Positions 6,071-60,509 of a stretch of 64,000 nt of DNA are shown in pieces. The notes below the pieces were generated by a model. It was not told the DNA's origin, searched no databases, and saw only the letters and a list, made by a program, of their open reading frames with translations. The DNA lies in sequence record MH752840.1; one strand, given 5' to 3'. Both the position numbers and the translations under genes were made by a program. How positions within the stretch are numbered: position 1 is the first letter of the stretch; each line of letters opens with the position of its first letter. The DNA comes from Escherichia phage vB_EcoM-Pr121LW.

Positions 6071-6661
6071 ATGTTTTTATGGGAAAGGCCTAGATACCTT
6101 CCAGATATTAGATTGGAGCTGCTGGCAGATATTGTTACGTTTAAAAGTCCGTTTACAGGTAAAACGCAAAAAGTAACCTATGCCACACCTAACTGGAAAG
6201 GCACTTTGACGGTTTCCAATATCAGCGAGTCACAGTTGCTAGAGCTTAAGAGCTTTGTTGATCAGGTGTATAAAGATGGGAACATATTTCTCATTAAAAC
6301 TTACGGTCACTCAGTAACAGCTAATGAGCCAATCGCCCTTGGGCCTACTGGTAACGACGATTTTTTGAAGACGGTTGGGTGGGAGCCAAACAGAGACATA
6401 GCTAGAGCTGGGGATAAAATATCTGTCAATGATGAATTGAAAGTGGTAACAGCTCCAGTACGCAGCGATGGTGTTGGGTCTGCTGTTATAAGCATATCTC
6501 CAAGACTTAGAAAACCTATTGCCGCAGGGGATACTATGAAGATAATAACTCAATCCCCAAAGGGTAGGTTTCATATCAGAGATATTTATAAAATTAAGCA
6601 AAAAGTCGATGCTATGCAAAAAGGTGATAATATAGTTATCAACTTCTTTGAGGATTTCTAA
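6071..6661 (+). CDS. minor tail protein (tail-tip complex)
   Basis: ORF after terminator and promoter, RBS ggaggcacaATG; position upstream of K-like and J-like genes. Confidence 0.5.
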   Translation: MFLWERPRYLPDIRLELLADIVTFKSPFTGKTQKVTYATPNWKGTLTVSNISESQLLELKSFVDQVYKDGNIFLIKTYGHSVTANEPIALGPTGNDDFLKTVGWEPNRDIARAGDKISVNDELKVVTAPVRSDGVGSAVISISPRLRKPIAAGDTMKIITQSPKGRFHIRDIYKIKQKVDAMQKGDNIVINFFEDF

Positions 6662-6662
6662 G

Positions 6663-7214
6663 ATGATTAGAGCGCCATTAGATAATTTATTTCTTGAGAA
6701 GCTGGAGCTTGATGGTGTTGAGATCTTAATTGCTGCAAAGCTAGAGCTACCGACAGGGACTGTCAGGGTGTGCTCAGGCACTGGTGTTGTAGTAATTGAG
6801 GGTCAACATTTTATAGGGATAGGTGGATCAGCAACATTAACTGCTGTGTCTGAGAAAGATGCCACCAACTTCGGATCTGTGGTAGCAACATTGAACGGGT
6901 TTGATCCTAAGTATGTTGGTGATCTACTGAAGACGGAGTATTCTGGTTGTCGTGCCACGTTGTACATTACCGCTATGGAGAATGGTCTGCCTGTTACAAC
7001 TAATGGTTTGTTTGACGGCCTTATAACAGATATGGCTATTCAGACAGGTGAGAACAGTGCTTTGTCCATATCCATCTCTTCCATCTTCAACAGTTGGTTA
7101 AGAGGTTTTCCTTATCGGTACACGGAGGAAAGCCACAGCTCAAGAAACGATAATGACAGATTTTTTAAATATGTGGATCAGGTGGCGAGCCGCCCGATCA
7201 TTTGGGAGGTTTAA
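6663..7214 (+). CDS. minor tail protein (tail-tip complex)
   Basis: ATG at 6663 with RBS gagga, coupled to upstream stop; synteny with lambda-type tip genes. Confidence 0.5.
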   Translation: MIRAPLDNLFLEKLELDGVEILIAAKLELPTGTVRVCSGTGVVVIEGQHFIGIGGSATLTAVSEKDATNFGSVVATLNGFDPKYVGDLLKTEYSGCRATLYITAMENGLPVTTNGLFDGLITDMAIQTGENSALSISISSIFNSWLRGFPYRYTEESHSSRNDNDRFFKYVDQVASRPIIWEV

Positions 7215-44258: not shown

Positions 44259-45023
44259 TTGAAATTTATCTACAAAGAACACTACCACAAAGGTGTTGTG
44301 TGGAGTCTATTTGACGGGTCTGGTGGTGCAGTCATTGACTGGGCAAAAGCTGGGTACCTGTGCCTGTGCTTTAATGCAGAAGGTGCTGATCACGGCAGTT
44401 ATGCAGAGGTGATAACCGATCATCCCAACATTCACTATGTGGATTATTGGATTGACCCATGGTTCCCTCAGGAAACTTTTTGCATGTACCCAGCTCCAGA
44501 CTTTATTCTTGCATTTCCTCCGTGCACGCATTTAGCGGTATCAGGTGCTGCACATTTTAAGAAAAAGCTGGCTAAGGACCCTATGATCCAAATTAATGCT
44601 GTAAAGGATGCTCGGGTTGCGGAAGAGCTGGGAGAGATTTACGATTGCCCGTGGCATGTAGAGAATCCTGTAGGTGTTATGTCCACACTGTGGCGCAAAC
44701 CTGATTACCGTTTTCATCCTTCTGACTATGGCGGGTATTTACCGGAGGATGATGTAAACCCTTGGTTTCCTGAATTTATAGCTCCACGCGATGCCTATCC
44801 AAAAATAACTTGCGGCTGGATAGGTAATGGATTTATAATCCCGGCCACAAAACCTGTCCCGCAAATAGTTGACGCGGTTAGCGGGTATTCCATGCAACAC
44901 GCTAAGCTAGGTGGAAAAAGTGCAAGGACGAAGATGATTCGAAGCCTCACACCCCGTGGCTGGGCAAAAGCCGTATTCTTAGCAAACGAGCCTGTAGTAA
45001 GGAGCAGAATTAATGGGAAGTAA
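44259..45023 (+). CDS. DNA cytosine-5 methyltransferase-like protein (short form)
   Basis: Motif I-like LFDGSGGAVIDWAKAG, motif IV-like FPPCTHLAVSG, motif VI-like HVENPVGV; start ambiguous (TTG 44259 after RBS aggag, or GTG 44229 inside terminator). Confidence 0.4.
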   Translation: MKFIYKEHYHKGVVWSLFDGSGGAVIDWAKAGYLCLCFNAEGADHGSYAEVITDHPNIHYVDYWIDPWFPQETFCMYPAPDFILAFPPCTHLAVSGAAHFKKKLAKDPMIQINAVKDARVAEELGEIYDCPWHVENPVGVMSTLWRKPDYRFHPSDYGGYLPEDDVNPWFPEFIAPRDAYPKITCGWIGNGFIIPATKPVPQIVDAVSGYSMQHAKLGGKSARTKMIRSLTPRGWAKAVFLANEPVVRSRINGK

Positions 45024-47091
45024 ATTTATGGCATCTGCATATAACCGTTTCGGTGAGCCAAACCCGAAAGCAACTAAGTATAAAAGTGGGGGAAGTGTGA
45101 AACGAGACTATCGTGATGAAAAAGAAGTTGAAACTGTAGAGACTGTTTTAGAAAATACTAAAATCGTCCCTGTCCCACAACAAAATATTGGTCTGATGGC
45201 TGCACAATATTTTGGTGTGCGATCAGCATTGTCCCAAGAAGACGGTGTGACAGTTACTGCAACATATTTCCCATATTACGACCGCTACGGGAATCTGTCC
45301 GGTTTCAAAAAGCGTGACTGGACGATCCCCAAAGAGCAACGTGGGCACTTTACGACGGTTGGGATCGTAAAGGCTAACTCCCAGATGTTTGGGCAAAAGC
45401 TGTGTGCATCTTCTAACAACCGTAAGCAGATTAACGTTTGTGAGGGGGAAGGCGATGTTATTGCAGCATGGCAGGCTGCATATCAGATACAAGTAAAAGG
45501 GATTCTCACCAACGCTAAAGCCCCGGCAAAGGTGAAACAGTGGGCTAAAGAGGTCCAGGACGGGATCGATGCAGTTATCAACGGGGGTGATCTGGCAGGA
45601 AAACCCTGCCTACCTTTTGTTGGAATTAACTGTGGATGTGCAAACGCAGTAGATACTTTTGCAAACAATGAGAAATTTATCCGTAGCTACGGAACAGTGG
45701 TCCTTGCAATGGACAACGATGCAGCTAACGAGGTAGAGAAGCAAAAACACGTTATCAAAGGTGTTGAAGCCACACATAATATCGCGGCATTTTTGATGGC
45801 TGATAACGTTTACCACGTGGAATACCCCAGCGAGGTAAACGATCCTGACGGTGTAAAAGATATCCGTGACATGCTGAAGGCTAAAAAGCTGGAAGATATT
45901 GTCAACATGTTCCGTCACCCAGTCAAATATGTGCCCGATGCTGTATCTGATTTAGAAGACTTCTCCATTGAATCTCTTCGTAAGAAGACTTCTAATGGCG
46001 TAGATATCAGCGCGGAGTTCCCTAAATTACAGAAGATGCTGAAAGGACTCCACAAAGGCACCTTGATGATGCTGACAGGCCCATCTGGCGGTGGTAAAAC
46101 AACTGTAGCCAAGAAACTAGAGCACTGCATTGCAAAATACTTGATGGATCCGACATGCCCTAAAGCCGATGATTATGAAGAGGATGATCGCCTGTGTCTG
46201 ATTCACCTTGAAGAGGACCCTGAGGAAGCAATTAACTCTCTGTACGCCAACCAGTTGGGGTTTGATGTTAAAGAGTTTGTTGAAGACCCTAGTCAGTTCC
46301 TGACTGATCAGGAGCATGCTGAGATTCACCAATCTTGGGCCAAGGCTGGAAAAATCAAAGTGTTCAAGCATTTTGGGTCTATTCCTGTAGATGAGTTGAT
46401 CACTAAGCTTAAACAAATGGTGTGTCTGTATCACTGCCGTTACATTGTGCTGGATCACCTGTCCATGGTAATTTCAGGGCTTAATGTTAAGGATGAGCGC
46501 AAAGAACTTGACATGGCTATGACGCAACTAGCCGCGTTCTGTAAGCAGTTTAATGTATTTATCTTGGTGATCGCTCACCTGAAACGCACAGAGATTGTGC
46601 CTCCAAAGGACAAGGATGGGAATCCGTTACCTTTCTGGTATCCTGTACGAAAAGAGAACCTTCGGGGTAGTGCCGGATTGGAGCAACTTAGCTGGGTAGT
46701 TGTTGGGGTGGAGGCAGAAGAGATGGTGGATCGTTCCCGTGGACGTGTCCGACTGGTAGGTCTTAAAAACCGCCCAGCAAAAACGTTAGGCATTGCGGAT
46801 ACCTTAGTTATGGATCCCCACACAGGTAAGTTCCATGATGCCAGCAACTGGTACTGGGACAAAGAAATGCAGATGTTCACAGACGGCGAAGGTGGGGAAG
46901 TTGTTTGGAGACCTCAAGCTATGTTTGAGGATCAAGAGCACGCAGTTGTAGAAACACCTGTAGGTAGGGTTGTGGCTGATAAGGTTGTAACTCCTACTGT
47001 TAACCCTGTTGACACACAGGAAGACCTTCCGTATGATGATCCGTCCTCTGACCCTGTTCCTGGCTTTGAAGACGATGAAACACCTTTTTAA
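45013..47091 (+). CDS. bifunctional DNA primase / DnaB-family helicase
   Basis: Toprim-like EGEGDVIAAW in N-half; Walker A MLTGPSGGGKTT and helicase motifs in C-half; 692 aa. Confidence 0.75.
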   Translation: MGSKFMASAYNRFGEPNPKATKYKSGGSVKRDYRDEKEVETVETVLENTKIVPVPQQNIGLMAAQYFGVRSALSQEDGVTVTATYFPYYDRYGNLSGFKKRDWTIPKEQRGHFTTVGIVKANSQMFGQKLCASSNNRKQINVCEGEGDVIAAWQAAYQIQVKGILTNAKAPAKVKQWAKEVQDGIDAVINGGDLAGKPCLPFVGINCGCANAVDTFANNEKFIRSYGTVVLAMDNDAANEVEKQKHVIKGVEATHNIAAFLMADNVYHVEYPSEVNDPDGVKDIRDMLKAKKLEDIVNMFRHPVKYVPDAVSDLEDFSIESLRKKTSNGVDISAEFPKLQKMLKGLHKGTLMMLTGPSGGGKTTVAKKLEHCIAKYLMDPTCPKADDYEEDDRLCLIHLEEDPEEAINSLYANQLGFDVKEFVEDPSQFLTDQEHAEIHQSWAKAGKIKVFKHFGSIPVDELITKLKQMVCLYHCRYIVLDHLSMVISGLNVKDERKELDMAMTQLAAFCKQFNVFILVIAHLKRTEIVPPKDKDGNPLPFWYPVRKENLRGSAGLEQLSWVVVGVEAEEMVDRSRGRVRLVGLKNRPAKTLGIADTLVMDPHTGKFHDASNWYWDKEMQMFTDGEGGEVVWRPQAMFEDQEHAVVETPVGRVVADKVVTPTVNPVDTQEDLPYDDPSSDPVPGFEDDETPF

Positions 47092-47149: not shown

Positions 47150-49927
47150 ATGAGTATGTATAGCTTCGATTTTGAGGCCTCTGGGCTTTTGGAAGATCCA
47201 GACCTTTATTATCACTGCGGCCTGTTTAAAGCGTTGAATAAGAACCGTTTTATGCTGTTCCTTCCTCTGAATGACCGCACACACTACTCCGAGGAGGATA
47301 TAGAGAAGGCTAAGAACTTTATTCTGGCAAAGAAAACTCTTTATAAGGATTTTGAAGTTCGCATAGCAGATTTTTCGGAGTTGGAAGGTTGGCTTACAGG
47401 AAATTCTGACTGGTCACCAACAGCTTTGAACTGCCATAACTGCTACAGTTATGACTTTATGCTGATGGAGAGATTGTCCGGTATTCATTTTGATATGTTC
47501 CGTGACCCTAAGTGTATGGGGACTATCAACGACCACCAGGTTAATCTGTTTGATACGTTGGCGATGAGCCGAATCTTGTGGCCTGATCGCCCTTTACCAA
47601 AAGGTTGTCCGGACTCTGTATTCAACCCGGTTACTAAGAAAATGCAGCCTGTTGGTCCTCACGGACTTATGGCATGGGGCTACGCCCTTGGTAACCAGAA
47701 AGTTCAAATTGATGACTGGCGCGATCTTCCGTTGTGGAAGTATGTGGATCGTGTATTCGAGGACGTTATCATCCAGGAGCTGCTCTGGAAAGAGCTGGTA
47801 GCGGAATCAAAAGGTGTATTCTACGGCAAATCTGACATGCAGAACTTTATGTACGATCCTGCCAAAGAGAAGCCGAAAGGGTTCAAGAAGATCACCTGGA
47901 AGAACGCATTACGCCGAGGCATGCTGCAGCACTTCCTGATGGAACTGCAGGCCCGTCAGGGTGTGTATTTTGACATAGATGGAGCTATTGCTTTACGTGA
48001 CCGTTGCGATGCGTGGATGAAAGAAATCGCTGATCGTGTTGAACCTCAACTTCCTTTAAAAGAGTTATCAATATCTCAGCGGCCCAAGTTCCCTGAAAAG
48101 CCGTTTAACCAAGACGGGACAATCTCTAATAATGGTTGGAAATGGTTAAAAGATAAGCTTGGCTATCCTGTAGACATGAGCGCTTTAGATTTCAAATCCC
48201 CGCCTAAGCGAGCATTTACCTCTACAGGAGATGTCAGCAAGATGGGGATAAAATGGTGTGAAGAGATGGGCTGCAAAGACCCCGATAAGATGGCTGATTT
48301 CTTGAGAGGCTATATTAAGGGCACTTCCACACCTCACCCTTTGCCTAAAGAGCTGATGGATCAGGCAATAAGTGATCTACAGCAGAAGCGAATGCCGGAC
48401 TGCAAGATACCTATGAAAATCAGCAATCAGGACGACATTAAGCGGTATCTGATCAGTGCTGGCTGGCTACCGACAATGTGGAGAACTAAGGATGTAACTA
48501 AAGATAGCAAGAAGAAAGCTCTACCTGATGCGGATGTTGATGCACGAGTATATGCATATATGGACGAGCTTTTAGAGTCAGAGTATTGTGACCTGATTAT
48601 CAACTTCTGGAACAAAACTGATGCCAAGTTCCAGACAACTGTGCACAAGTTCCGAAGCTTTCCTAACTCTGAAAGGATTAAAAAGGAAGTATTCGGGAAA
48701 ATACGTAGAAAAGCCAGAGCACTTATTACTTCTCCGCAACTGAAAGATACGTTTGGACACCTGTGTCCGAATCTTGAAAAATTGAACGGAGAGATGGCTA
48801 AAGATATCGTCTTGTGGTTATCATTGCGAAACCGCAGATCAGTCCTTGACCCAATCAAGGAGGATAAGGTTGATACTGGTCTTCTTAATCACCCACGTTT
48901 GAAGATTGACCATAAGCTTCCTGCTAAAAGCTCTGGATTAACAAACACTTCCAGACAGAAACACAGTATTTGTGCAAACATGCCTAAACCATCCCCCAAA
49001 GTGGTTATGGGTAAAGAGATGCGCAGTCTGTGGGGTGTTCCTCCTGGATACTTTCAGATCGGTATTGACGGGTCCAACTTAGAGCAGCTTATCGGGGCTT
49101 GGGGTGCCTTTGAGTTCGACAACGGCTTGTATTATGATGTTGTAAGTAACGGGGACGCACACCAAAACAATGCTGAGGCATATACAAAAGTAGCAGGCAG
49201 AGAGGTGTCTCGTAACGACGGTAAACCTATCACGTATGGGGTTATGTACGGGGCACAAAAAGATAAAGTTGCAGATATGCTGGACATCTCTCCAGAGTTG
49301 GGACAAAGGGTAATCGATGCACTCTGGGATGCCAACCCTGGTCTCAAGGGGCGCAAAGAGGATCTGGAGAAATTCTGGGAAGCAACTGGTAAGAAGTTTA
49401 TCTACTCTTTTGATGGTCATGCTATCTGGACCAGATCTAAACACTCTTTACTTAATGCATACCAACAGAATGGTGGTGCATCGCTGTGTGACTTAGTTGG
49501 GATACTTATGCACCACCAGATGGTGAAGCGTGGGTGGTACGATGAAGGTGTTCGTCGTATTATCTATTACCATGATGAGTACCAACTTCAGGTCCCTGAC
49601 ACTCCTAAGTATAAGACTGTGTACACCTTCGACACAATTGAAGAACTGGAAGCATTTAAGGCAGAGCAGGAGGCCAAACTTCATGTGTTCGACGGTCATA
49701 AGTACAAAAAGGCACGCAAGGATGAGGACGGAAACGAAGTGGTTGACAGAGACGGAAACACGGTGTACGATCCTATCCTGAACGATGACGGAAAGCTTGA
49801 ACTTATCTGGAGCCCTGTGGGTGAAATGGTGGTGCATTGCTTCTGGCAAGCTTCTAAAATGATGGGAGTCCCGTTCCAGATCACAGGTGAATACTTGTGT
49901 GGTCGTAACTGGGGTGATTGTCACTAA
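47150..49927 (+). CDS. family A DNA polymerase with 3-prime to 5-prime exonuclease domain
   Basis: Exo I-like FDFEASG; motif A IDGSNLEQL; motif B RNDGKPITYGVMYG; motif C YYHDEYQL; 925 aa. Confidence 0.8.
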   Translation: MSMYSFDFEASGLLEDPDLYYHCGLFKALNKNRFMLFLPLNDRTHYSEEDIEKAKNFILAKKTLYKDFEVRIADFSELEGWLTGNSDWSPTALNCHNCYSYDFMLMERLSGIHFDMFRDPKCMGTINDHQVNLFDTLAMSRILWPDRPLPKGCPDSVFNPVTKKMQPVGPHGLMAWGYALGNQKVQIDDWRDLPLWKYVDRVFEDVIIQELLWKELVAESKGVFYGKSDMQNFMYDPAKEKPKGFKKITWKNALRRGMLQHFLMELQARQGVYFDIDGAIALRDRCDAWMKEIADRVEPQLPLKELSISQRPKFPEKPFNQDGTISNNGWKWLKDKLGYPVDMSALDFKSPPKRAFTSTGDVSKMGIKWCEEMGCKDPDKMADFLRGYIKGTSTPHPLPKELMDQAISDLQQKRMPDCKIPMKISNQDDIKRYLISAGWLPTMWRTKDVTKDSKKKALPDADVDARVYAYMDELLESEYCDLIINFWNKTDAKFQTTVHKFRSFPNSERIKKEVFGKIRRKARALITSPQLKDTFGHLCPNLEKLNGEMAKDIVLWLSLRNRRSVLDPIKEDKVDTGLLNHPRLKIDHKLPAKSSGLTNTSRQKHSICANMPKPSPKVVMGKEMRSLWGVPPGYFQIGIDGSNLEQLIGAWGAFEFDNGLYYDVVSNGDAHQNNAEAYTKVAGREVSRNDGKPITYGVMYGAQKDKVADMLDISPELGQRVIDALWDANPGLKGRKEDLEKFWEATGKKFIYSFDGHAIWTRSKHSLLNAYQQNGGASLCDLVGILMHHQMVKRGWYDEGVRRIIYYHDEYQLQVPDTPKYKTVYTFDTIEELEAFKAEQEAKLHVFDGHKYKKARKDEDGNEVVDRDGNTVYDPILNDDGKLELIWSPVGEMVVHCFWQASKMMGVPFQITGEYLCGRNWGDCH

Positions 49928-56308: not shown

Positions 56309-56503
56309 ATGAGAAACAAGAGAGAGCTTTACTCTGGCGAGTGGATAAACGATCAACAGGTTGGAGAGGTAACCTGCTTCCGGTGTTTTACTCGGTACAA
56401 TCTTAAAACTGCACCAAAAAGTGTTCCAAAGACTGATGGTTATTACATAAAAGAGCCTCATTGCCCGAAATGTAAATGCCGAGTATACTGGAGTAACCTG
56501 TAA
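56309..56503 (+). CDS. small zinc-ribbon protein
   Basis: ATG 56309 with RBS ggagaga; CFRC ... CPKCKC cysteine pairs. Confidence 0.4.
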   Translation: MRNKRELYSGEWINDQQVGEVTCFRCFTRYNLKTAPKSVPKTDGYYIKEPHCPKCKCRVYWSNL

Positions 56504-56507
56504 AAGA

Positions 56508-56535
56508 TTGACATCTGAAAACTGCGGTGTATAAT
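56508..56535 (+). promoter_or_regulatory. sigma70-type promoter (TTGACA-16-TATAAT)
   Basis: Consensus hexamers with 16-nt spacer. Confidence 0.6.
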
Positions 56536-56566
56536 ACAAACATAAACTAGCAGAGAGGGATATATT

Positions 56567-56758
56567 ATGGTAATTTTTAATCGAGACGGTATCATAGTCA
56601 GGCAGCACCCATTCCTTGAATACTATCAAATTGAGCAATGGTGCTACGGAGATTGCAGTCACTCCTATGGGCAAAGTTGGGGATATCGCACAGTTTTTGA
56701 ATCAACAGACCTTGACAAAGTAAGACAGAAAGTTTTAGAACTTATTAACAACAAGTGA
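56567..56758 (+). CDS. hypothetical protein
   Basis: 63-aa ORF behind strong promoter 56508-56535 and RBS gagaggga. Confidence 0.4.
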   Translation: MVIFNRDGIIVRQHPFLEYYQIEQWCYGDCSHSYGQSWGYRTVFESTDLDKVRQKVLELINNK

Positions 56759-56768
56759 GTATCGTGCC

Positions 56769-57101
56769 ATGGTAACATTGGAAAGACGTAAAGCTATCGC
56801 CGCCACACTGGCAGACATCTTTTGGGATTGCAACTTAAAAGATACCCGAAATTGTGGCGCATCTGTAGATGTATTATTCCCACGGCCTACCATTGTTGCA
56901 ATGGGAAACCTGTCAAACGTAGTGTACGGAGCATGGGACAAAGAAGGTGGATTCTATATCTGGCAACCTGACTACGGAGCCTGGAAAGAGGTAAGGGGTG
57001 CGGTTGACTTTGGGCCTACAAGTGCTAAGATGGATGGCTGGGAAATTTATGTTGGAAACGACATGAAGCTGAAAGGCGAGATTGTTTACTGGTTGCCTTA
57101 A
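56769..57101 (+). CDS. hypothetical protein
   Basis: 110-aa ORF. Confidence 0.4.
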   Translation: MVTLERRKAIAATLADIFWDCNLKDTRNCGASVDVLFPRPTIVAMGNLSNVVYGAWDKEGGFYIWQPDYGAWKEVRGAVDFGPTSAKMDGWEIYVGNDMKLKGEIVYWLP

Positions 57102-57121
57102 GAACGTGCAGGAGATAAAGT

Positions 57122-57367
57122 ATGAACAAAGGGTGGACATTCGTAGACGGCGTTAAAAACATGCCTCTTGGAAAGTATATTGTAGCCATGGCAGATGAGA
57201 ATGGCAAGGTGGATTTCGGAGTTTGCGAGGTTGTTCTTGCAGGATCTGGCGACTATGTGCACAAAACTGGGATAATTAACGGTCATTTCTACTTTGATTA
57301 CAACCCTGTTGTGGCGTATATGGCTATGCCAGAGTTTAAGTTCCCAAAGGAGGGTGCTGATGTTTAA
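57122..57367 (+). CDS. hypothetical protein
   Basis: 81-aa ORF, RBS aggagataaag. Confidence 0.4.
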   Translation: MNKGWTFVDGVKNMPLGKYIVAMADENGKVDFGVCEVVLAGSGDYVHKTGIINGHFYFDYNPVVAYMAMPEFKFPKEGADV

Positions 57368-57557
57368 GCTTAAATCCGCATGGAACATTGCTGTAGGTGA
57401 CGAGATCCGTATTCCCGGTGGAGAAACTATTATGAAGATATCTCGTATCGAGTATGAAGGTGACCGTGTATTCCACATCTTTGCAGAAGATGGTCGAGAA
57501 ATTTATATACAGGCAGGCTCTCACATCTATATCCGTAAGAAAGGGGACGACAAATGA
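57360..57557 (+). CDS. hypothetical protein
   Basis: ATG 57360 with RBS aaggaggg, overlapping upstream stop. Confidence 0.4.
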   Translation: MFKLKSAWNIAVGDEIRIPGGETIMKISRIEYEGDRVFHIFAEDGREIYIQAGSHIYIRKKGDDK

Positions 57558-57886
57558 CAGAGATCATCGTTTCAACTGCAGGGTATGTATTCCTGACAAT
57601 CATTGCGCTGGCTATTCTGGTGGCGGTGTATGGATTTGTTATCCTGCCTATTCTTGAGACATTTAGTTTGTGTCGGTGTTGGAGAAAAGCTTACGGACCA
57701 CAACCGTGGAAAGACTGGTTCCATTTGGTGCGTATAGCGTTCTCTTATGCCTATGACCACTCTAGCAGTGCATGCGTAACCGGGTACCATGCCTACAACT
57801 GGAACTGGGAAGGGTTGGGGAGATGGACTGTTACAAAAACTATACCCTTACGGTTGTACAAAGGAAAGAACAAACTGGGCACCTGA
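57554..57886 (+). CDS. membrane protein
   Basis: Hydrophobic segment YVFLTIIALAILVAVYGFVILPIL; last gene before non-coding region. Confidence 0.45.
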   Translation: MTEIIVSTAGYVFLTIIALAILVAVYGFVILPILETFSLCRCWRKAYGPQPWKDWFHLVRIAFSYAYDHSSSACVTGYHAYNWNWEGLGRWTVTKTIPLRLYKGKNKLGT

Positions 57887-58901
57887 TATTTTAAGTTATC
57901 AGGTTCCCAGAGATCAGGAGGATTTCTAAAATGGATTTCCTCCTTTTGATATTTCACCGGACCAGATATTTTAAAATTCTTAGAAAATCAGAAAATGGAT
58001 CGAAAACTAAAATGGATTTTTTCAACACAGGCGCGGAAAATTGTGCCAATCTATCTAGCCGTTTGCACCATATTCGAAATCACCGTTCCAGATTTCCCAC
58101 ACATACACACCTCCCCGCCATACCTTTCTCCACTCACTCTTAGTGATTTATGACGGAAAACCCATCACTATCAGTGAGTTGCGGTACAATTTTTCCAGTA
58201 CTCGATCTACTTTTCATTTCATGGTTTGGATTTTCTGAAAATTTTTCTCGATAAATTTCTCAGTACTCGATCTGTTTTTCGTTTTCTGAATCGGATTTTC
58301 TGGAAATCGTTCCGGCTCTCGACCTGAAATTTTTGGGGACGAAATCGATTTTTCGTTTTCAGAAATGGATTTTTAAAATTTCTATATGGGAATATTTTAT
58401 GGGGTACTGTTTTATAGGAAATTGTTACGGATGGTAATTAGCATGCTAATTAAATTTATTAAATGCGAGGAGTTCTCATTTAGAATTTTGAATGATAATC
58501 ATTCTCGTTTGCAGAATAACGGGCAGGCCCGGTGATTGTCTCCCGGCCCCTACTGCCCCGGCTTGCTATTATAGTAACACACAGGACAAAGAAAGCAAGA
58601 AGTTTTTGCATAAATTTTTAGACGATAATGATAATCGTTCTCATTTCATGCAGCGCCCATCCCCGGTGGTTGTCTCCCCCGTCACCGGTGCCTGCCGTCC
58701 TTTCGATAGGTATATTGTGCCACCTGGCGGGGCCGCTGTCAACACTTTTCAAAAAATTTTTCTAACCTGATGCGCTAACCGCTGCAACCTGGCGGGGCCA
58801 GCCTGGCAGTACCTAACTGACCAGGTAGGAGAGAATGAAGGCTTGTAAACCTGGTGGGCCTATGCTATAGGATAGGTAACAATTGAAGAGGAGGTACAAA
58901 A
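57887..58901. other. about 1-kb non-coding region with several families of short direct repeats
   Basis: Four aaaatggat copies, two cagtactcgatct copies, two tttcgttttc copies, two gataatcNttctcNttt ... cccggtgNttgtctccc units (58493-58565, 58623-58700), two cctggcggggcc copies; no ORF with credible coding character. Confidence 0.6.
57916..57955 (+). terminator. hairpin aggagga / tcctcct with T-rich tail (possible terminator)
   Basis: 7-bp stem with 15-nt loop followed by tttgatattt; just after last replication-module gene. Confidence 0.35.
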
Positions 58902-59078
58902 ATGAAAGGTAATATAATCCCCCTGGAAAATGTAGCTATTAATGACGCTGAGGCTATCGCCCTGGTTGAAAAGGCTATGGCGGGAGCGTTGGAACATAAA
59001 GAAGAGTACGAAAAAATGATGGTTAACCTGGCAGGGGCGGCGGCTGGAGAATTCTGCCCAAAAAATAATTTTACATAA
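58902..59078 (+). CDS. small early protein (58 aa)
   Basis: Hand-translated MKGNIIPLENVAIND...; RBS gaggagg 6 nt upstream; below track cutoff. Confidence 0.4.
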   Translation: MKGNIIPLENVAINDAEAIALVEKAMAGALEHKEEYEKMMVNLAGAAAGEFCPKNNFT

Positions 59079-59081
59079 TGG

Positions 59082-59110
59082 TTGACAGCTCGGATAGTTC
59101 TTGTTATTCT
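59082..59110 (+). promoter_or_regulatory. early promoter (TTGACA-17-TATTCT)
   Basis: Hexamers with 17-nt spacer. Confidence 0.5.
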
Positions 59111-59162
59111 TATCCTCGCAAGGTGAACAACACCACACTAATTAACAAAGAGGATAAAAATC

Positions 59163-59360
59163 ATGAACGCATACGGAATCAAAGTACGTCGCAACACTCG
59201 CCAGGTGGTCACCGACCAAGTGATTTGCCGGGTGGATGTAACCATCAACAACGGGCAAGGCCTTTATAAATTTCGTCGCGGTCATAGCTATACCCTGCAA
59301 CAGCTTAACCGTTGCGCCCTGACAAAAGGTCAGATCAACCACTGGTTTAATAAAAAATAA
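59163..59360 (+). CDS. small basic early protein
   Basis: 65 aa; own promoter 59082-59110 and RBS agaggataaaaatc. Confidence 0.45.
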   Translation: MNAYGIKVRRNTRQVVTDQVICRVDVTINNGQGLYKFRRGHSYTLQQLNRCALTKGQINHWFNKK

Positions 59361-59363
59361 ATA

Positions 59364-59392
59364 TTGACATATAGTCTGACACAAAATATACT
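59364..59392 (+). promoter_or_regulatory. early promoter (TTGACA-17-TATACT)
   Basis: Hexamers with 17-nt spacer, A-rich upstream. Confidence 0.6.
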
Positions 59393-59424
59393 GAAATCAC
59401 AAAAGACACTAAGAGGATAAAATC

Positions 59425-59823
59425 ATGAAAACCACAACCTTTAATTTTGATAATGCCGACTTCTCTTTTTCTGATGTCAAGAACTGCCGCCGTGATCGTG
59501 GATTTTACAAGGCTTATAATCTGGTGGGCCTGGACGATGACAATAATTTGCACGAAGTAGCTGAGATCCGGTATTATGCCGCCTCCAGCGGTAACACTCA
59601 TTATTGCGTCTTTTGGATGCACGACAGCAAGAACAACAAGTACGGTTATACTGGTGGCAAGGCGAGCGGTCACGGTTATGATAAGGCCAATGCAGCACTT
59701 GAAAGCGCGTTAAATGCTATGGGGATCACTGCCAACGGCTGGATCTATGAAGATGAGTTTTTGTCAGCACTTGCTGCCCACCTGGGGTATAAAAAGCACA
59801 TTGTGACATGCGCCCACGAATAA
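59425..59823 (+). CDS. early protein, unknown function
   Basis: 132 aa; own promoter 59364-59392 and RBS. Confidence 0.5.
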   Translation: MKTTTFNFDNADFSFSDVKNCRRDRGFYKAYNLVGLDDDNNLHEVAEIRYYAASSGNTHYCVFWMHDSKNNKYGYTGGKASGHGYDKANAALESALNAMGITANGWIYEDEFLSALAAHLGYKKHIVTCAHE

Positions 59824-59838
59824 AAAAAAAAAAAATTA

Positions 59839-59866
59839 TTGACACGCTGCAAAATTAAAGTAAACT
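59839..59866 (+). promoter_or_regulatory. early promoter (TTGACA-16-TAAACT) with upstream A-tract
   Basis: Hexamers with 16-nt spacer; a14 run at 59822-59835. Confidence 0.55.
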
Positions 59867-59876
59867 AGACACAAAA

Positions 59877-59895
59877 GGCGGGAATGTTTCCCGCC
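59877..59895 (+). promoter_or_regulatory. 5-prime UTR stem-loop
   Basis: ggcgggaatgtttcccgcc, 7-bp GC stem about 10 nt after the -10. Confidence 0.5.
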
Positions 59896-59914
59896 AACAC
59901 AAAGGAAAAAGATC

Positions 59915-60310
59915 ATGAATAAGAACGTACGCCGCATCATGAACGAACTGGCAAACGATGAAAAAATTATTGATATGCATTTGGTCAACATTTGCCGCCG
60001 TTGTGTAACATATAACAACCGCGCCGCAAAAGCGCGTGAGATGAACGCAAAAGGCACCTTAAAGCCCTTTCAGGTGGTTGTAAAATCTATAGCTAATGCA
60101 GCAGGCCAGGCGCATGACCACAACAACGAGAGCACTAATATTGATCCGTCTTACGTAATGAAACGGATCCGGACTTGCAAGAATAAAGAGCAGGTGTATA
60201 ACGTCATAGATTGGCTGGACTCCATGGGCGATGTGGTTTATAATAGGTTTTCTGCAGCTATCGAGATCCAGCTTGACAGACTGGACGGGAAAGTACTGAA
60301 AACTTACTGA
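59915..60310 (+). CDS. early protein, unknown function
   Basis: 131 aa; own promoter 59839-59866 and 5-prime UTR hairpin. Confidence 0.5.
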   Translation: MNKNVRRIMNELANDEKIIDMHLVNICRRCVTYNNRAAKAREMNAKGTLKPFQVVVKSIANAAGQAHDHNNESTNIDPSYVMKRIRTCKNKEQVYNVIDWLDSMGDVVYNRFSAAIEIQLDRLDGKVLKTY

Positions 60311-60311
60311 G

Positions 60312-60358
60312 TTTATTTTTAGATGGCCTTGACTCCAGGGCCATCAATAAAGTAAACT
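60312..60358 (+). repeat. 47-bp intergenic cassette, copy 1
   Basis: tttatttttagatggccttgactccagggccatcaataaagtaaact; T-run, inverted repeat gatggcc/ggccatc, TTGACT-18-TAAACT promoter-like hexamers. Confidence 0.7.
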
Positions 60359-60389
60359 AACCACAGTTGAGCGGAAAGGGGGCTTAAAG

Positions 60390-60509
60390 ATGAGTACTAC
60401 ACGCCAGCACACAAAGGTAACTATTATCGTTTGCATCATTGGTTACATCCTGGCGCAAATGTTGATGGGTAGCGCCAACGGTATCGCAAAATTTTTCTTA
60501 AACTTTTAA
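60390..60509 (+). CDS. small hydrophobic peptide (39 aa)
   Basis: Hand-translated MSTTRQHTKVTIIVCIIGYILAQMLMGSANGIAKFFLNF; RBS aaaggggg; downstream of repeat-cassette promoter. Confidence 0.3.
   Translation: MSTTRQHTKVTIIVCIIGYILAQMLMGSANGIAKFFLNF

Follow-up and report, generated by a model that had tools for sequence, protein, structure and literature searches.

The 64-kb window analyzed here (the whole stretch of 64,000 nucleotides, from which all coordinates are counted) derives from a Vequintavirus, an rV5-like myovirus, and is 97% identical to phage isim. Positions 57887–58901 form a conserved non-coding control region that sets a terminal block of small early genes, ~11 kb in length, apart from the remaining genome in rV5-like phages. 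The placement given in the initial annotation, with the replication module on one side and the early genes on the other, is roughly right, as the genes for primase-helicase and DNA polymerase are 8–13 kb upstream and, downstream, sigma-70 promoters drive small ORFs. That annotation also found no credible ORF spanning the region, and comparative data bear this out: the ORFs are lost outside the genus while DNA motifs persist, and indels shift the frame of rV5 ORF198 in phage Alma. Phage isim and several other records carry no annotation here. Over 13 Vequintavirus genomes, identity in the core (58200–58790) is 92–99.7%, compared with 82–93% for the flanking ORFs. We found no publications on 57887–58901, and searches of the literature returned nothing relevant on Fur boxes of this phage group, on transcriptomes of the subfamily or on a replication origin.

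From left to right, the region comprises a terminator pair, short repeats on one strand (GATATTT and AAATGGATTT), a variable spacer, three direct repeats of ~70 bp, predicted Fur boxes, a GC hairpin element and a predicted leftward sigma-70 promoter. The same order of modules recurs in Seunavirus, Certrevirus, Mydovirus, ABPH49, TH18, Phapecoctavirus, Citrobacter phage Tr1, Stephanstirmvirinae and one Aeromonas phage. In Vequintavirus, the module consisting of Fur box, hairpin and promoter is present twice, in tandem. All five families of short repeats described in the initial annotation are present and non-random, and each pattern is absent elsewhere in the window on that strand. That annotation did not include the Fur boxes, the terminators, the leftward promoters or the use of the CCTGGCGGGGCC copies as promoter spacers.

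The left boundary is marked by a bidirectional terminator pair. A hairpin with arms at 57875–57888 and 57897–57910, followed on the minus strand by UUUGUUCUUUCC, is a candidate terminator of leftward transcripts, as judged from the inverted repeat and from folding. The hairpin and the stop codon of the preceding ORF (57554–57886) overlap. In other Vequintaviruses, this position is taken by a hairpin that differs in sequence and likewise has a U-rich tail on the minus strand. Immediately to its right, a predicted Rho-independent terminator of the upstream plus-strand operon (57916–57947; AGGAGGA-loop-TCCTCCT-TTT) contains one copy of AAAATGGATTT in its loop and is kept in 13 of 13 Vequintaviruses, with compensatory changes in the stem.

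These hairpins overlap or fall within a block of short plus-strand repeats (57885–58024), consisting of GATATTT at 57885, 57948 and 57965 and AAAATGGAT(TT) at 57928, 57992 and 58009. The latter three are the only plus-strand copies of AAAATGGAT in the window; the fourth aaaatggat copy described previously proved to be a variant, AAATGGAT, at 58363. Positions 57975–58024 are 98% identical over the 13 genomes. Equivalent repeats, namely three to four copies of GATATTTG together with AAAT..ATTT repeats, occupy the same position in FENT2, ABPH49, phiTE, KpS8, CR3, KaOmega, SSE121 and TH18. Orientation bias extends further to the right, with six copies of GGATTT on the plus strand and none on the minus strand in 57887–58480, compared with 0.26 expected (P = 3e-7). 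Tandem Repeats Finder returned only a trivial 12-bp repeat. The C-rich spacer that follows (58025–58187) has a GC skew of about −0.25 and an imperfect inverted repeat at ~58131–58180. It is only 71–78% identical within Vequintavirus, with indels, and relatives have a spacer of similar size and unrelated sequence.

To the right of the spacer is an iteron-like array of three long direct repeats (58188–58400, plus strand), with units starting near 58188, 58253 and 58313/58327. Each unit contains CTCGAYC (58201, 58266 and 58318), TTTTC runs, a GGATTTT box and the A/T tract GAAAATTTTTC; three of the four plus-strand copies of CTCGAYC in the window fall in the region. A repeat search groups the 65/74-bp copies as one family with three members, 47–60 nt long and 74–77% identical. 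Two repeat pairs reported earlier belong to this array. Both copies of CAGTACTCGATCT are present (58196 and 58261), spaced by 65 bp rather than the 67 bp given, and the tttcgttttc pair corresponds to TTTCGTTTTC at 58277 and 58351. The array is 96–99% identical within Vequintavirus. Five other lineages also have exactly three units, with their spacing conserved (75/67, 78/63 and 68/65). Stephanstirmvirinae have three units at the same place with a different sequence. Because the sequence of the repeats varies between subfamilies while their number, spacing and position are constant, we infer that the array binds a phage-encoded protein. Consensus searches found no sigma-70 promoters within the three repeats. 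A CRISPR-like array was considered and rejected, as complete 70-bp units are repeated and there are no unique spacers.

The right end of the array runs into easily melted DNA. A nearest-neighbor stability scan identified 58364–58463 as the least stable 100-bp duplex of the window, making it a candidate DNA-unwinding element, and a perfect 18-bp palindrome, TAATTAGCATGCTAATTA, lies inside it at 58435–58452. The least stable 300 bp of the window (58205–58504) also has the lowest GC content (0.31).

The next elements are predicted binding sites for the host iron regulator Fur. Fur box 1 (AATGATAATCATTCTCGTT; 58491–58509) has the 7-1-7 core TGATAAT-C-ATTCTCG and Fur box 2 (GATAATGATAATCGTTCTC / AATGATAATCGTTCTCATT) is at 58624–58645. 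Both match the palindrome AATGATAATnATTATCATT at 17 of 18 positions (starting at 58491 and 58627), and these are the only boxes in the 64 kb that match at 15 or more of 18. In addition, 58624–58642 matches the 19-bp Fur consensus GATAATGATAATCATTATC at 17 of 19 positions, the only such match in the window, where 0.03 are expected. Fur box 1 is invariant in 13 of 13 Vequintaviruses, is kept in every related genus and has 16 consecutive nucleotides in common with the E. coli fhuA promoter/operator. A degenerate Fur-like box found by consensus scan at 58462–58480 (AATGCGAGGAGTTCTCATT; 14/18) is the counterpart of a strong box, AATGAGAAnnnTTCTCATT, in related genera, and relatives have arrays of two to five adjacent boxes. 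The two strong boxes lie in the two imperfect ~75-bp units noted previously, which share GATAATCnTTCTCnTTT (58494 and 58630) and CCCGGTGnTTGTCTCCC (58528 and 58662) and start ~135 bp apart. Thus the earlier suggestion of an operator array holds in that both units contain near-consensus boxes, but these are predicted sites for host Fur, not for a phage early regulator. A plus-strand promoter (TTGAAT-18-CAGAAT) that would overlap Fur box 1 was rejected, since its −10 is not conserved across genera.

Each Fur box is followed by a GC-rich element and a predicted leftward promoter, both read on the minus strand. GC-rich element 1 (58510–58567; ..GCAGAATAACGGGCAGGCCCGGTGATTGTCTCCCGG..CTGCCCCGG), recognized from conservation and folding, would form the 5′ end of a putative leftward transcript, with GAGACAAUCACC in a hairpin loop. 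It is 98–99.7% identical within Vequintavirus, and its core ACAAnCAC is invariant across genera. The adjoining promoter, P_L1 (58568–58599), was recognized by reading the sequence: its −35 is TTGCTT (58599–58594) and its −10 is TACTAT/TATAAT (58576–58568). P_L1 scores below the threshold of our promoter scan; an aligned TTGnnn-16/17-TAnnnT, often with TGn, is found in every related genus. Upstream of P_L1 is a UP-element-like A/T tract (AAAAATTTATGCAAAAAC on the minus strand; 58600–58623), and the early-promoter consensus of Certrevirus, AAAA(N3)TGTTGAC(N17-19)TATAAT, likewise includes UP-like A tracts (PMC7344957). In relatives, a further candidate site for a host factor, tandem GTAAA-N5-GTAAA, directly precedes the leftward promoter.

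GC-rich element 2 (58646–58713; ..CCCGGTGGTTGTCTCCCCCGTCACCGGTG..) was identified by repeat search as a duplicate of element 1. It is 99% identical across the genus, and its minus-strand fold has a z score of −2.1. The second leftward promoter, P_L2 (58714–58765), emerged from the promoter scan with a score of 10/12 plus an extended −10. It consists of TTGACA (58742–58737), a 17-bp spacer containing the first copy of CCTGGCGGGGCC, TGg-CACAAT (58719–58714) and an A/T tract (58746–58765). Across the genus, the −35 is invariant and the −10 is CACAAT or CAAAAT. As described in the initial annotation, CCTGGCGGGGCC occurs twice, at 58723 and 58788; the second copy is in a less conserved stretch (58786–58802) that is possibly a weak leftward promoter (TTGCAG-17-TAGAAA) and is deleted in phage Alma. 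A tentative first rightward early promoter (58843–58871; TTGTAA-17 with TGc-TATAGG) precedes the ribosome-binding site and ATG at 58902. It was found by reading the sequence, is weak by consensus and is not in the promoter-scan list, and its spacer is a third CCTGGyGGGCC-like copy. Its −35 is deleted in three members of the genus, indicating that this promoter is dispensable or replaced there.

What could this arrangement do? Most likely, the 1-kb gene-free stretch is a replication origin or control hub, and not a spacer or a packaging site. Our best single guess, made tentatively from the sequence, is a transcription-activated replication origin in which leftward transcription is gated by Fur. 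The array and the A+T-rich segment would jointly constitute the origin. From P_L1 and P_L2, the host RNA polymerase would pass over the Fur boxes and proceed leftward into the array. By analogy with T4 oriF/oriG, the T7 primary origin and ColE1, such transcription may melt the duplex or provide primers for synthesis. The boxes would lie at about +55 to +85 relative to each start, where iron-bound Fur could gate the transcription by host iron status, and the transcripts would stop at the hairpin at 57910–57875.

In favor of an origin, as the initial annotation had proposed, are the oriented iteron-like repeats and the presence here of the window's least stable duplex, into which the promoters would fire; against it, no initiator gene adjoins the region and sites for DnaA and IHF are not enriched in consensus scans. 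Pfam and PHROGs searches of the flanking proteins identified no initiator, DNA-binding family or known function. GC skew does not change sign in the region and follows gene orientation; it is therefore uninformative as to an origin. A skew analysis in the rV5 genome paper also found no origin (PMC3606486). A search of plasmids for a shared origin returned nothing beyond a phage genome that had been deposited as a plasmid. A further argument against an origin is that the injection-stop region of phage T5 is equally origin-like, yet is not the T5 origin (10.1101/866236). One perfect DnaA box was noted by eye, in ABPH49 only.

Like the iteron origins of lambda (ori), P1 (oriR) and plasmids F, RK2 and R6K, the region has direct repeats in one orientation, phased A/T tracts and an adjacent, easily melted A+T-rich segment. 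Its repeat sequence co-varies with lineage, as expected of an initiator and its sites, and in related genera the repeats contain GATC, as do those of P1 oriR and oriC. However, there are exactly three units of 65–78 bp here, compared with four to nine units of 19–22 bp, and the region differs from those origins also in its lack of a neighboring initiator gene and of DnaA-box enrichment. The likeness to T4 oriF/oriG, the T7 primary origin and ColE1 RNA II is of another kind: one or two strong promoters point toward an A+T-rich unwinding region located 100–350 bp from them in the direction of transcription, and the transcript may have a structured 5′ end. Here, in contrast, a repeat array and Fur boxes are interposed between promoter and A+T-rich DNA, the R-loop or primer is hypothetical, and the promoters are of the host sigma-70 type rather than served by a phage-modified or phage-encoded polymerase.

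How might Fur contribute? The boxes do not overlap the −35 or −10 of the conserved leftward promoters and lie ~55–85 nt downstream, a position that is unusual for Fur repression. As in the operators of the enterobacterial Fur regulon (fhuA and iucA), the matches are nearly complete (17/18 and 17/19), there is a 7-1-7 palindrome, 16 consecutive nt are identical to the fhuA promoter, and the arrays in relatives recall the two to five adjacent boxes of strongly Fur-bound promoters. Unlike members of that regulon, the predicted boxes are in a virulent phage, in a gene-free region and downstream of a promoter rather than over its −35 and −10. A further cluster of three Fur-like boxes is within the first 165 bp of the terminal repeat. 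It is conceivable, if on the unlikely side, that large virulent enterobacterial phages have incorporated Fur into both the conserved control region and the terminal repeat, such that leftward priming transcription, replication or even DNA entry, the last in the manner proposed for DnaA in T5, is gated by the iron status or by phage DNA that titrates Fur as it replicates.

It is also possible, though we rather doubt it, that the region is purely a hub of transcriptional control with no role in replication. On this view, an early or middle regulator of the phage would act at the repeats, which would form its operator or enhancer array, and the Fur boxes would be iron-sensing operators; the two together would set the output of divergent early promoters, for example to shut off early transcription or insulate the early block. 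In favor of such a hub, no features of the region are clearer than its promoters, UP-like tracts and terminators; a box for a host regulator is present, and relatives have the tandem GTAAA-N5-GTAAA, which presumably resembles a CpxR box. Lineage-specific repeat sequences would suit any phage DNA-binding protein, not an initiator alone. However, no conserved ORF follows the leftward promoters in Vequintavirus, so that it is not obvious what product would be regulated. The repeats are also on the downstream side of these promoters and 450–700 bp from the rightward promoter, and the latter is deleted in some members of the genus, while the array is invariant.

An improbable alternative is that the region is the inner boundary of a first-entering DNA segment, at which host Fur bound to the incoming DNA would pause or checkpoint entry until early proteins are made. 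The precedent is the injection-stop signal of phage T5, a 1.2-kb untranslated region at 7.9% of the genome that is more conserved than ORFs, and contains 66-bp direct repeats, palindromes and eight boxes for host DnaA (10.1101/866236). In phage HdK5, the control region is 11,184–12,166 bp from the left end of the 139,328-bp genome (8.0–8.7%), and 28 small ORFs lie between the terminal repeat and the region. The two systems are alike in consisting of 1–1.2 kb of untranslated DNA ~8% from a genome end, conserved above nearby ORFs, with direct and inverted repeats, palindromes and a cluster of boxes for a host protein. In both, a second cluster is nearer the end: the Fur-like boxes of the terminal repeat here, DnaA boxes in T5, whose signal is Repeat Region 3 of the left terminal repeat. 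As a hint only, Vequintaviruses and T5-like phages are both among the groups sensitive to daunorubicin (PMC13250531). Against this explanation, the boxes differ (DnaA in T5, predicted Fur here, where DnaA boxes are not enriched); T5 is a siphovirus with a 10-kb terminal repeat, whereas this myovirus has one of 459 bp; the same architecture is found in genera with unmapped ends; and the agreement in percentage distance may be coincidence. The literature searched contains no report of two-step DNA transfer for Vequintavirinae.

We also consider it unlikely that the locus is primarily one for a non-coding RNA, in which leftward RNAs from P_L1 and P_L2 would act through a conserved 5′ stem-loop as regulatory or decoy RNAs and the DNA repeats would be repeats within the RNA. 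Conservation of the leftward promoter and the leftward terminator at the far end are consistent with such an RNA. The loop motif of the predicted stem-loop, GAGACAAWCACC (GAGACAATCACC loop), is invariant across genera, and in relatives the closing stem by the P_L1 start pairs at 69 of 72 positions on the minus strand compared with 60 of 72 on the plus strand, with two compensatory pairs. A covarying hairpin is also present in another conserved GC-rich element, the second of its kind, in relatives. However, within Vequintavirus the stem is in a different register, RNAalifold gave no consensus structure for the GC-rich hairpin element, and for the longer segment of relatives it scored both strands alike, giving no strand call. 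Rfam searches at E ≤ 1 found no match in 56500–60500 or in five related loci, and most z scores of single-sequence folds fall within −1 to +1. The perfect 7-1-7 palindromes and strand-oriented short repeats resemble DNA sites for dimeric or oriented proteins rather than RNA helices. The structured RNA raised in the initial annotation is therefore weakly supported, by the compensatory stem near the leftward promoter and the better minus-strand pairing in related genera. A link to the pseudo-ToxI RNA of phiTE was rejected, as the phiTE locus contains no ToxI-like sequence.

It is very unlikely that the region is a neutral spacer or a set of unrecognized small protein genes (rV5 ORF197–199 and a minus-strand ORF of 43 amino acids at 58480–58611 with a hydrophobic N terminus). 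Some records do annotate ORFs here, and the 43-amino-acid ORF is open in most members of the genus. However, the DNA is conserved above the neighboring genes, and this conservation extends to genera with none of these ORFs; ORF198 is broken by indels, and the variable part (58025–58200) carries 1-nt indels; and P_L1 lies inside the 43-amino-acid ORF, whose ATG is not preceded by a Shine-Dalgarno sequence. Least probable of all, and rejected, is a packaging (pac/cos) site, as also suggested initially, or the physical genome terminus, for which there is just the general likeness of repeat-rich non-coding DNA to terminase-binding regions: Vequintaviruses have defined direct terminal repeats of 458–459 bp (PMC7471380, PMC6563267). 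In the records of HdK5, Gotham and ECP2309, the 459-bp repeat is found at both ends. Nothing in the 64-kb window matches it; it lies ~11 kb further on, beyond the window, at 10.7–11.4 kb from the control region in every record compared.

Phages of the rV5-like group and their relatives are widely used in therapy and biocontrol, and we know of no replication origin or early regulation described for the rV5-like phages. What had been a box labeled "non-coding" is now resolved into conserved parts with individually testable coordinates. If the Fur boxes function, a strictly lytic phage would sense host iron, which would matter for applications of these phages in infected tissue and in the iron-poor gut. 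If the region instead acts as the T5 signal does, two-step DNA entry would extend to a group of myoviruses. It is also conceivable that Fur-gated phage programs are widespread and overlooked, as many near-perfect Fur boxes occur in unrelated viral contigs, often directly after consensus sigma-70 promoters.

The window is assigned to Vequintavirus, rV5-like myoviruses with genomes of ~138 kb; positions 57500-59300 share 97% identity with Escherichia phage isim and 88-95% with ~120 other records. Upstream plus-strand genes encode rIIA/rIIB, a Dda-like helicase, a DNA methyltransferase, a primase-helicase (45013-47091) and DNA polymerase (47150-49927), followed by plus-strand small ORFs of unknown function, the last of which stops at 57886. 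Downstream lie small ORFs, early genes according to the rV5 annotation, with consensus sigma-70 promoters called ahead of them by promoter scan (59082, 59364). The rV5 genome map shows a grey "non-coding" box here, and skew analysis gave no origin (PMC3606486). We propose that 57887-58901 is an origin or control region of the phage with predicted operators for host Fur. The literature searched describes neither this region nor Fur boxes in such phages, and it maps no origin.

The initial annotation saw no credible ORF here, and comparison agrees that the region is non-coding: its ORF annotation is inconsistent from record to record, rV5 ORF198 is frame-shifted by indels in phage Alma (indels also occur in the variable part), and none of its ORFs is found in related genera that retain the DNA motifs. 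A 43-aa minus-strand ORF (58480-58611; MQKLLAFFVLCVTIIAS...) with a hydrophobic N terminus is open in most Vequintaviruses; it lacks a Shine-Dalgarno sequence, contains the predicted leftward promoter P_L1, is absent from other genera and is probably spurious. The short repeats reported earlier are all present, each confined to this place within the 64-kb window, although some details change. AAAATGGAT, thought to occur four times, has three exact copies, the fourth being AAATGGAT; the two copies of CAGTACTCGATCT are spaced 65 bp apart rather than ~67 bp; and the two "75-bp units" exist, with starts 135 bp apart. Longer copies group into one family with three members of 47-60 nt. Among the short motifs, enrichment is strong and restricted to one strand: GGATTT occurs six times on the plus strand and never on the minus strand in 594 bp (0.26 expected, P = 3e-7), and 3/4 of the window's plus-strand copies of CTCGAYC fall in the region.

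The region is more strongly constrained than the surrounding genes. Among 13 aligned Vequintaviruses, 57925-58025, 58200-58400, 58425-58600 and 58620-58790 show 92-99.7% identity versus 82-93% for the flanking ORFs, with just 64-78% at 57850-57925, 58025-58200 and 58800-58875. BLAST across genera reaches only a 73-bp piece (58472-58544). Direct reading of the loci shows that Seunavirus (LNA4, FENT2, SSE121), Certrevirus (phiTE, CR3, KaOmega), Mydovirus (KpS8), ABPH49 and TH18 arrange their parts in the order found here. First comes the end of a plus-strand operon, with three to four copies of GATATTTG and then short AAAT..ATTT repeats after it; past a variable spacer, three ~70-bp direct repeats lead to one to five Fur-like boxes, then to a GC-rich element whose core is GGTGwTTGTCTC and finally to a leftward sigma-70 promoter. 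In Phapecoctavirus, Citrobacter Tr1 and an Aeromonas Plateaulakevirus, the triple repeat, the Fur boxes and their position are retained, with fewer other parts confirmed. The architecture, as these sequences indicate, is far older than the genus. In most relatives, this promoter is followed by another GC-rich element that is conserved and by a second leftward promoter, in some cases also by a small leftward ORF, and only then do the rightward early genes begin; Vequintavirus lacks this extra part and instead carries the Fur box–element–promoter module in two tandem copies.

The repeat array (58188-58400) has three units in every lineage compared, with start-to-start spacings of 75/67, 78/63 or 68/65 bp elsewhere; here they are 65 bp, then 52-74 bp. 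GGTnCTCGATCG, a TTTTC run, ATCGTATT and GAAAAAATTTTT recur in every unit; Stephanstirmvirinae have three ~70-bp units in the same place with unrelated sequence (ATTTAAAGTTTTT..AAAACCAAAATnTAAAGTTT). Since number, spacing and position are constant and sequence is lineage specific, the array resembles binding sites co-evolving with a phage-encoded protein, and we infer that it binds such a protein. An upstream phage gene (44229-45023) encodes a DNA methyltransferase (PHROG 757), and GATC forms the core of the repeats in related genera (CTCGATCG, GATCGTATT), so array methylation may matter. The array is situated in the window's least stable DNA: in a duplex-stability scan of the 64 kb, no 300-bp stretch was less stable or lower in GC (0.31) than 58205-58504, and no 100-bp stretch was less stable than 58364-58463; the unstable A+T-rich stretches next in rank are at 6531-6730 and 59348-59447, the latter among early promoters.

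Two predicted minus-strand promoters point into this DNA. P_L2 (58742 to 58714; TTGACA-17-TGgCACAAT) was called by the promoter scan and agrees with the Certrevirus early-promoter consensus (PMC7344957). P_L1 (58599 to 58568; TTGCTT-16-TACTAT/TATAAT) scored under the scan threshold and is aligned with TTGnnn-16/17-TAnnnT, often plus TGn, in every related genus. Two of three "CCTGGCGGGGCC"-type copies are GC-rich promoter spacers, one inside P_L2 and the other, CCTGGTGGGCC, inside a tentative rightward promoter (58843-58871). At the left edge, a conserved hairpin with compensatory stem changes (57916-57947) and a T-run make up a plus-strand terminator. A second hairpin (57875-57910), followed on the minus strand by a U-rich tail, is a candidate leftward terminator; the other Vequintavirus subgroup has a hairpin of different sequence in the same role. 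Together, the leftward promoters and this hairpin predict leftward RNAs of ~690-830 nt without a conserved ORF.

The "75-bp units" open with AATGATAATCATTCTCGTT (58491) and AATGATAATCGTTCTCATT (58627), each with 17 of 18 bases in agreement with the palindromic Fur consensus; no other box in the window reaches 15/18. Fur box 1 (58491-58509) has 16 consecutive bases in common with the E. coli fhuA promoter, as confirmed in Escherichia, Shigella, Salmonella and others, where the 18-mer ATAATCATTCTCGTTTAC lies 32 bp ahead of the start codon of fhuA; fhuA is repressed by Fur. Fur box 2 (58624-58645) agrees with 17 of the 19 positions in the classical E. coli 19-mer (0.03 chance matches expected) and adjoins the A/T tract upstream of P_L1. 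A degenerate third box at 58462 is the counterpart of a strong box in relatives, which have up to five in a row. By sequence, the boxes are Fur consensus sites and predicted operators; they do not overlap the conserved promoters, lying ~55-85 nt downstream of the leftward starts.

What might this arrangement do? The best fit, which we hold tentatively, is a replication origin that leftward transcription would activate or prime and that host Fur could gate by controlling this transcription. Repeats, melting DNA, promoters pointing into it, Fur consensus boxes and terminators all point this way. We go no further because flanking proteins include no initiator, the ~70-bp unit length is atypical of iterons, the region shows no enrichment of DnaA or IHF sites and GC skew is uninformative. 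A purely transcriptional role, compatible with an origin, would explain much of the same evidence and is possible, if doubtful.

A non-coding RNA role, also compatible with an origin and also explaining much of its evidence, seems unlikely. The structured RNA suggested earlier is weakly supported: Rfam gave no match for the region or five related loci, RNAalifold no consensus structure for the GC element, and fold z-scores are weak except in Certrevirus (~-3). However, a six-pair stem would join the predicted P_L1 transcript 5′ end to the bases that immediately precede the Fur box. In the non-Vequintavirus rows, its pairing is preserved in 69 of 72 minus-strand cells versus 60 of 72 on the plus strand, and two pairs show compensatory changes and G-U intermediates; in Vequintavirus the stem is in a different register. 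These data lend modest support to structure at the 5′ end of a leftward transcript, or in the matching single strand of DNA.

A separate hypothesis, to which we give little weight, is that the region is an analogue of the T5 injection-stop signal. That signal occupies 1.2 kb of untranslated DNA, 7.9% into the T5 genome, and is more conserved than nearby ORFs, with 66-bp direct repeats, palindromes and eight host DnaA boxes; it is described as oriC-like, yet T5 origins lie elsewhere (10.1101/866236). In HdK5 (MK373780), our region lies 8.0-8.7% from the left end, and the 28 small ORFs filling the intervening space are all transcribed toward the end. Whereas T5 has DnaA boxes, the rV5-like region has predicted Fur boxes in the equivalent place. 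A second cluster of three Fur-like boxes (HdK5 10-28, 126-144 and 144-162; 16, 16 and 15 of 18) sits within the first 165 bp of the 459-bp Vequintavirus terminal repeat, so the 11-kb early-gene block has Fur-type boxes at either end. The parallel cautions against calling every such region an origin.

The packaging site once considered is ruled out, since the direct terminal repeat of Vequintaviruses (458-459 bp; PMC7471380, PMC6563267), identical at the start and end of the HdK5 record (459 bp), terminal also in the Gotham and ECP2309 records and conserved in 119 records, always lies 10.7-11.4 kb right of the region (window orientation; records compared) and has no match inside the window, which places the expected physical end at ~70,000, past the window.

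Several further observations concern relatives. In most related genera, a tandem TCTTTACAnnTCTTTACAAA (minus strand GTAAA-N5-GTAAA), a putative CpxR box, lies just upstream of the leftward promoter -35 (for example, loci L004 2630-2650, L141 1613-1633, L008 2650-2670); it is absent from the window. Relatives also have a highly conserved ~75-nt element (CTACCGGCGATCCACCTTCC..GTTAGCCCCGCCTTTTCGCCGTGGGGTGGCG; for example, L004 2666-2739, L141 1650-1723, L007 2692-2760), absent from Vequintavirus and without an Rfam match, that contains an ACCWGG/CCYGGU hairpin with covarying pairs, variable loop length and G-U pairs favoring the plus strand. In one Vequintavirus, 241Ecol014PP, an HNH endonuclease gene (PHROG 953; 163-807 of the locus) has been inserted directly upstream of the non-coding region in place of the usual small ORFs. 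Approximately 16-18 "Campylobacter phage" records (MG0656xx) share 90-99% identity with this E. coli phage genus, and the 137.6-kb record CP057073.1 is a Vequintavirus genome entered as an E. coli plasmid; mislabeling seems likely in both cases. Finally, the exact 19-mer AATGATAATCATTCTCRTT occurs in at least 120 stretches of very diverse viral contigs (IMG/VR loci L009-L128; for example, L010, L013, L041, L100, L112 and L122), among the matches listed often in 2-4 tandem copies (arrays in L012, L029, L039, L058, L082 and L110), and in several unrelated contigs ~12 nt after a perfect TTGACA-17-TATAAT promoter. Judging from these matches, strong Fur-type operators seem to be widespread in phage genomes.
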